Below the pieces are notes generated by a model. The model saw only the letters and a list, made by a program, of their open reading frames with translations. It was not told where the DNA came from and made no database searches. Positions 20,631 to 20,805 of a DNA stretch of 39,189 bases are shown in pieces. Within the stretch, counting starts at the first letter, position 1. Each line of letters opens with the position of its first letter. Both the position numbers and the translations under genes were made by a program. Origin of the DNA: a virus (lineage: Duplodnaviria; Heunggongvirae; Uroviricota; Caudoviricetes). Where the stretch lies: IMG/VR virus record IMGVR_UViG_2703718862_000013. One strand, written 5' to 3'.

Positions 20631-20805
20631 ACCGGCAGCATAAGCCGGGAGTTTTCAGGGCGGGTTTTGCGGGATTTCAGGAAGTATTTTCAGGGAAAAA
20701 TGCAAAGGCGCTTCACGCAGATTTTAAAGCCCGTTAAATACAGGTTAGAAAATCACGACACGCGCCTGAAGGGGGTAAGGTAATGCATTTGCATACCTTA
20801 AACAA
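20631..20805 (-). promoter_or_regulatory. G-I intergenic region: candidate late promoter; candidate position of central strong gyrase site
   Basis: 175-bp non-coding gap in a tightly packed operon; three TTTCAGG repeats at 20653, 20674, 20688. Confidence 0.3.

Follow-up and report, generated by a model that had tools for sequence, protein, structure and literature searches.

The question raised by this locus is what function, if any, resides in the non-coding interval that separates the homologues of the Mu genes G and I at the centre of a Mu-like prophage. The window, by which we mean the whole stretch of 39,189 nt of DNA that was analysed, is an Sp18-type, Mu-like transposable prophage of E. 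coli. A preliminary description of it pointed out that in Mu the G-I region carries the central strong gyrase site (SGS) and that a C-dependent late promoter precedes I, and both statements are confirmed by the Mu record, in which a 196-nt G-I gap holds the annotated gyrase cut, followed by a predicted terminator and then by the annotated promoter PI (Table 1). In the window, the gap is probably a two-part regulatory region, the ~100 nt proximal to G being a strong gyrase site and the ~70 nt proximal to I a late promoter PI; this reading is supported by homology and by the literature. A gyrase site and a late promoter in the G-I gap are already-known biology for Mu and for Sakai Sp18. What is new here is modest, and consists of a box consensus for the phage group and a predicted leaderless I mRNA.

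Gene order in the window is Mu-like: the high-coordinate end carries the repressor, ner, A and B, the low-coordinate end com/mom, and the late genes are on the minus strand. The region around the gap finds its best match, at 100% identity, in a prophage of E. coli STEC2018-607, and is ~90% identical to prophages in many O157:H7 strains; Mu, D108, SfMu and some Yersinia phages match its coding parts only, at ~68%. In phage orientation, the first letters of the window are those of the stop codon of the repressor-like gene (39187-39189), so that ~250 nt of the left end are absent, and its other end (1-20) is the point at which homology to the right end of Sp18 stops. The position near the genome centre that had been pointed out for the gap is borne out, as the distance between the predicted gyrase cut and the c-repressor end is 18.4 kb out of 39.2 kb, i.e. 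47% of the length of the window versus 48.7% in Mu.

The G-I gap comprises 175 nt (20631-20805) between G-like and I-like ORFs which, judged by their identity to the Mu proteins and their Pfam domains, are true homologues of Mu G and I. It contains no credible ORF and has no Rfam match, and the non-coding interval of the preliminary description is real. The surrounding operon is not otherwise overlapping or abutting, as had been stated: a gap of 125 nt (21280-21404) lies next door between F and G, at a place where the two genes overlap in Mu, and there are smaller gaps too. At the F-G gap, an Rfam tRNA model matches positions 21318-21405 on the plus strand, antisense to the late genes, with 30 bits (gathering threshold 29) and E = 6e-4 in a 1.2-kb scan, and PGAP calls “tRNA-OTHER” at this position in three relatives; neither ARAGORN nor a gathering-threshold scan of the whole window returned a tRNA there.

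Table 1. Coordinates of genes and of observed or predicted elements in and around the G-I gap, with the corresponding region of Mu. Positions are those of the window unless Mu is named.
Feature	Position	Strand	Remarks
G homologue, virion morphogenesis protein	20806-21279	-	54% identity to Mu G; PF05069
I homologue, Mu-type head protease/scaffold	19497-20630	-	52% identity to Mu I; PF10123
C homologue, Mor/C-family late activator	28601-29023	-	40% identity to Mu C; PF08765
Predicted gyrase-binding region (SGS homologue), 133 bp	20719-20851		Cleavage predicted near 20785/20786; centred on the position aligned with the Mu cut
Left arm of predicted gyrase site			Would be formed by the last ~46 nt of G
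Palindrome ATGCAAATGCAT	20783-20794		At predicted cleavage core; read from sequence
Right-arm block CGTGATTTTCTAACCTGTATTTAACGG	20731-20757		Phased A/T tracts at ~+37 and ~+49 from predicted cut
Third A/T tract CTTTAAAATC			At ~+61, just past right-arm block
Near-invariant stretch, Sp18-type family	20704-20771		From nucleotide diversity
Small hairpin GCGTGAAGCGC then CTTTGCATTTTT	20696-20718	-	From RNA fold
TTTCAGG copy 1	20688-20694	+	~-64 to -58 of PI; not conserved
TTTCAGG copy 2	20675-20681	+	~-51 to -45; overlaps first six bases of activator box
TTTCAGG copy 3	20653-20659	+	PI spacer, ~-29 to -23; not conserved
Late-activator (C-type) box CTGAAATCCCGCAAA of PI	20666-20680	-	~-50 to -36
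PI -10 hexamer TATGCT	20637-20642	-	Invariant in family, always 6 nt before ATG
Predicted transcription start	20630	-	A of I start codon; placed from geometry
Sister late promoter, Plys equivalent	28561-28604	-	Box CTGATATTCCGCAAA (28604-28590), then 23 nt, then TACGCT
Third late-promoter-like site	4547-4589	-	Box CTGAATTAACGCAAA (4589-4575), then 22 nt, then TATGAT
Mu gyrase cut site	Mu 17879/17880		20 nt after G stop; Mu record annotation
Mu predicted terminator	Mu 17908-17953		TransTermHP, Mu record; overlaps SGS right arm
Mu late promoter PI	Mu 17977-18043		Mu record annotation

Likeness to the Mu gyrase site is concentrated in one arm. Local alignment of the two gaps pairs nucleotides 49-75 of the window gap with nucleotides 49-75 of the Mu gap, 23 of the 27 positions being identical, a score reached by none of 3000 shuffles. 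This right-arm block occupies +29 to +55 from the aligned cut, at an offset from the G stop that equals that of Mu. The 133-bp Mu SGS fragment of Topo-Seq maps to Mu 17812-17944, and the right arm of Mu therefore reaches ~+66. No resemblance to Mu is seen in the core and left arm (22/66 identities), and where Mu has the first A/T tract of its right arm (~+11 to +21), the window has a G+C-rich stretch. The alignment with the Mu gyrase site that the preliminary description had proposed thus gives a significant match for the right arm, with core and left arm unlike Mu.

The same block can be followed outside the Sp18-type family. Seven enterobacterial prophages (the window, Mu, and prophages of Citrobacter, Edwardsiella, an Enterobacteriaceae isolate, Erwinia and Kluyvera), with G proteins that share only 52-72% identity with that of the window, align without gaps over ~70 columns here, and the conserved columns are the A/T tracts. 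Of 80 viral loci, 60 have a match to a profile of the block upstream of I, these being essentially all the loci with an I protein at least 51% identical to that of the window; where I identity is 42-46%, there is a weak match in only three of 21 loci. Within the Sp18-type family, nucleotide diversity is 0.017 over nucleotides 45-103 of the gap, compared with 0.075 and 0.20 at third codon positions of G and I, respectively, so that the SGS block is ~4 times less variable than the third positions of G. Variation in the SGS half concentrates in the palindrome ATGCAAATGCAT, its most variable part; the predicted cleavage core thus varies within the family, besides being unrelated to the Mu core. 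The 10-12-bp periodicity of A/T versus G/C places the right arm of Mu, as a positive control, at the 99.9th percentile of its own genome, and that of the window at the 96-99th percentile, which is weaker than Mu. The published 133-bp gyrase consensus was also turned into a template for scanning Mu and the window, an approach that was dropped when the Mu SGS did not come near the top rank.

The closest counterpart of the predicted site lies in the Sakai Sp18 prophage, which was located from the coordinates in PMC7430833. Sp18 and the window agree at all 133 bp around the predicted cut, within a run of identity from -95 to +83, and the identical stretch likewise lies between the G and I homologues in Sakai. 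According to a review of the work of Pato, Higgins and Toussaint (PMC10052514), through which we take the experiments of Oram and Pato (2004), the SGS of the Mu-like prophage of Sakai is the only replacement, among all sites tried in place of the Mu SGS, that promoted Mu replication. Together with the similarity of the right arm to Mu, this identity of 133 out of 133 bp supports the earlier suggestion that the gap holds a gyrase site. The site might support Mu-type replicative transposition, as the Sakai one is reported to do.

For Mu, it has been reported that the right arm of the SGS is essential and the left arm dispensable (PMC10052514; also PMC13284261), and the proposed mechanism is one in which processive supercoiling forms a loop whose apex is the SGS and which favours synapsis of the prophage ends (PMC3820752). 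By analogy, positions ~20704-20805 and the 3′ end of G would constitute the central strong gyrase site of the phage. Gyrase would cut ~20 nt past the G stop, and the right arm, with tracts at ~+37, +49 and +61, would wrap a GyrA C-terminal domain, leading to processive supercoiling. The supercoiled loop, with the SGS at its apex, would then juxtapose the two prophage ends, allowing a transpososome to assemble and replicative transposition to proceed. This loop mechanism has been demonstrated for Mu, and would extend to the window by that analogy. The prophage would in that case possess the cis-acting site needed by Mu-type elements for fast replicative transposition, which would fit with the situation in Shiga-toxin-producing E. 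coli, where Sp18-type prophages are intact and mobile.

The I-proximal part of the gap, ~20630-20695, would be the late promoter PI. Scanning found no complete sigma-70 promoter; there is a -10 hexamer without a usable -35. The box CTGAAATCCCGCAAA begins 38 nt before TATGCT, and the same distance separates the start of the C box of Mu PI (CTCAAATAGCATAAC) from the Mu -10 hexamer, CAAACT. The Mu -10 positions used here were inferred from the common register of four GenBank late-promoter features, in which the hexamer occupies positions 42-47 and the C dyad is centred at 10.5; the C site of Mu late promoters has been described as centred at -43.5 (PMC2582627). Box, hexamer and both spacings are invariant in all 22 relatives, and the sequence of the spacer varies. 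The window box is identical to that of Mu PI at nine of 15 positions and does not follow the Mu-type pattern TTAT-N6-ATAA. Of the six helix-turn-helix (HTH) residues of C reported to contact DNA, three differ between Mu and the window, which fits with a different box sequence and specificity. The geometry of PI thus appears to be that of the Mu C-dependent type, with a box specificity of its own. The C homologue, as a dimer or tetramer, would occupy the box and activate sigma-70 RNA polymerase at TATGCT in the absence of a -35 element.

The box is not confined to the G-I gap. The pattern CTGAWWTNNCGCAAA, a consensus partly set after the sites were seen, has exactly three matches in the window where 0.28 would be expected by chance. 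All three are on the coding strand, intergenic and ahead of genes in the late direction, and all are also present in Sakai; TACGCT, TATGCT or TATGAT (TAnGnT) follows 37-38 nt after the first base of each. One of them, CTGATATTCCGCAAA, overlaps the stop codon of the C homologue upstream of lys, whose ORF starts at 28529, leaving a Plys leader of ~25 nt. The late promoter that had been suspected before I is backed both by the geometry of Mu PI and by the recurrence of its putative box just downstream of the gene for the candidate activator. A 14-codon mini-ORF beginning ATGAGACAG (28500-28545, minus strand) starts before the lys start codon, within the predicted Plys leader, and continues beyond that codon in a different frame. 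The third site lies between gin and a 693-aa ORF (2442-4523, minus strand); this ORF has a sialate O-acetylesterase-type domain (PF03629) and DUF6645, and looks like a cargo gene placed at the position of Mu Pmom. A relaxed-pattern search of the window for a fourth promoter, of the PP type, gave just a chance-like match inside the transposase gene. As a working consensus for the late activator of Sp18-type phages, the box may be useful.

An alternative placement of the promoter was considered, in which TCCCGCAAA would be the -10 element by alignment with the Mu PI -10 region CCCGCAAACT, both being ~42 nt from the ATG. It was rejected because the activator site would then fall in the most variable part of the gap, with no shared upstream element. 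Preference was given to TATGCT and the box CTGAAATCCCGCAAA because box and hexamer are conserved, at fixed spacings, across three promoters and in many relatives. Two further observations concern the same stretch. An inverted repeat, CCGGC-N7-GCCGG (20632-20648, minus strand), flanks the -10 hexamer on both sides and stops 1 nt short of the ATG, its stems being invariant in the family. No other 48-bp stretch of the 39 kb reaches the 10-12-bp periodicity of A/T versus G/C found at positions 20630-20677 (11.75, against 11.73 for the next best), and this periodicity stays at top level in all 22 relatives, even those without CCTGAAA.

Placing PI at TATGCT has a consequence for the I message. TATGCT ends 6 nt before the ATG of I and no Shine-Dalgarno sequence precedes the ATG, from which a leaderless I mRNA is predicted, since a start 7 nt past the hexamer coincides with the A of the ATG. 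The start codon itself is right and the frame from the ATG is coding, given that the first codons of I differ synonymously between variants and that their product, MKT, matches the MK of Mu I and the MKT of I proteins of the Kluyvera, Erwinia and Edwardsiella types. The arrangement of box, 23 nt, hexamer, 6 or 7 nt and ATG was found as 16 distinct sequences in 33 of 80 viral loci from several lineages; their hexamers are TATGCT, TAAGCT, TACGAT and CACACT, and their spacers are very different. Mu and phages of the Kluyvera and Erwinia types have instead a leader of ~25-35 nt with a Shine-Dalgarno sequence (26 nt in Mu). From geometry alone, we predict that the mRNA for the protease/scaffold and the head genes would be leaderless.

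A/T tracts in a phase of ~11 bp would continue from the gyrase site across the promoter as far as the start codon, so that wrapping and transcription could be coupled or in competition. In a wider formulation, Sp18-type and several other Mu-like phages would express a leaderless head protease/scaffold operon from a C-type promoter abutting the distal right arm of the SGS, with gyrase wrapping and late transcription physically coupled or competing. We consider this combined proposal unlikely as it stands; if it were true, the coupling would tie the replication phase to the onset of head-gene expression.

Some of the evidence from the gap could be read in other ways. The conserved G-proximal block might act as RNA, namely as an intrinsic terminator or another structure ending the lys-to-G transcript before PI, rather than as a gyrase site. 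The TransTermHP terminator of the Mu record overlaps the right arm, the RNA of the window gap folds better than shuffled versions (z = -3.6), a small GC hairpin with a T-rich tail is present at 20696-20718, and several relatives have a hairpin and T run just past the block of A/T tracts. However, the hairpins of the relatives lie downstream of the block, with sequences and positions that vary, and the conserved columns of the block are A/T tracts in fixed phase, not stems. RNAalifold found no consensus pair among seven diverse sequences, and in view of this lack of shared pairing the constraint on the block looks to be at the level of DNA. A scan for the terminator consensus gave nothing on the coding strand of the gap, and did not call the hairpin at 20696-20718, which may be a weak terminator of the transcript ending with G and whose place corresponds to that of the predicted terminator in Mu. 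An RNA element in place of a gyrase site therefore seems quite improbable to us and would not account for the conserved block; the functions of terminator and gyrase site could coexist. The gap is also a mosaic boundary (within 19497-21279), and diversity among the 22 relatives jumps exactly there, from 0.028 in the last 300 nt of G to 0.16 in the first 300 nt of I. That it should be a mere recombination junction between modules, with no function of its own, is nevertheless barely credible, as its non-coding block is more conserved than the synonymous sites of G and is common to Mu and other genera, and the promoter geometry is conserved.

The TTTCAGG repeats, which read CCTGAAA on the coding strand, had been given prominence. 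The three copies do exist, 23-64 nt upstream of the I ATG, but as a feature they are barely beyond chance and are not conserved: ~5% of the 175-bp stretches of the window (12 separate places) and 7% of dinucleotide shuffles of the gap contain one 7-mer or another in triplicate, and three copies are found in only six of 22 distinct relatives, with no intact copy in nine. They sit in the promoter half, outside the predicted gyrase site, and only the middle one overlaps a conserved element. They might still be imagined as a functional array of binding sites, either sub-sites for a C tetramer or sites for a host nucleoid protein. C has been reported to bind as a tetramer over almost three helical turns, the copies fall within 42 bp in the promoter half, where A/T periodicity is the highest in the window, and CCCTG of copy 1 is conserved. 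Against this, the spacings are irregular (13 and 22 nt), and the extra copies are missing from the sister promoters and from PI of the Citrobacter type, as well as from the relatives counted above, which makes such an array a very doubtful proposition. We therefore do not regard the heptamers as a functional repeat unit: one copy belongs to the box, and the other two are lineage-specific. CCTGAA also occurs at 20765-20770 on the plus strand, as the complement of the heptamer core (TTCAGG on the coding strand); it pairs with the CCTGAA of copy 3 in the predicted RNA fold, a pairing that is lost where the copies are lost. A gyrase site next to a late promoter is the reading that we retain for the gap, and in what follows it is compared with the systems it most resembles.

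With the Mu promoters PI, Plys, PP and Pmom, the predicted promoters of the window share a -10 without a -35, a box placed 38 nt before the -10 and centred near -44, a Mor/C-family activator encoded upstream, and a box directly after C, ahead of lys. They differ in the box, which is CTGAwwTnnCGCAAA in the window versus TTAT-N6-ATAA(CCCC) in Mu, in half of the DNA-contact residues of C, and, at PI, in having neither the 26-nt leader nor the Shine-Dalgarno sequence of Mu; no equivalent of PP was found in the window. Leaderless mRNAs have a precedent in phages in the cI message of lambda transcribed from PRM. As in that message, the predicted 5′ end of the I mRNA is at the AUG, with no Shine-Dalgarno sequence. 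I is, however, a late structural gene with an activator-dependent promoter, and its start in the window is predicted.

The predicted gyrase site shares with the Mu SGS its place in the G-I gap at the genome centre, the 27-nt block of the right arm, and tracts at ~+37, +49 and +61. It differs in its unrelated core and left arm, in lacking the first right-arm tract, centred at ~+16 in Mu, and in lying in a gap of 175 rather than 196 nt. The likeness is closest to the SGS of Sakai Sp18. There are a few substitutions in the I-proximal promoter half, the I gene of the window belongs to another allele group (~75% protein identity to Sp18-like variants), and the prophage resides in another strain, with its best match in STEC2018-607; across the 133 bp at the predicted cut, and in their location between the homologues of G and I, the two are the same.
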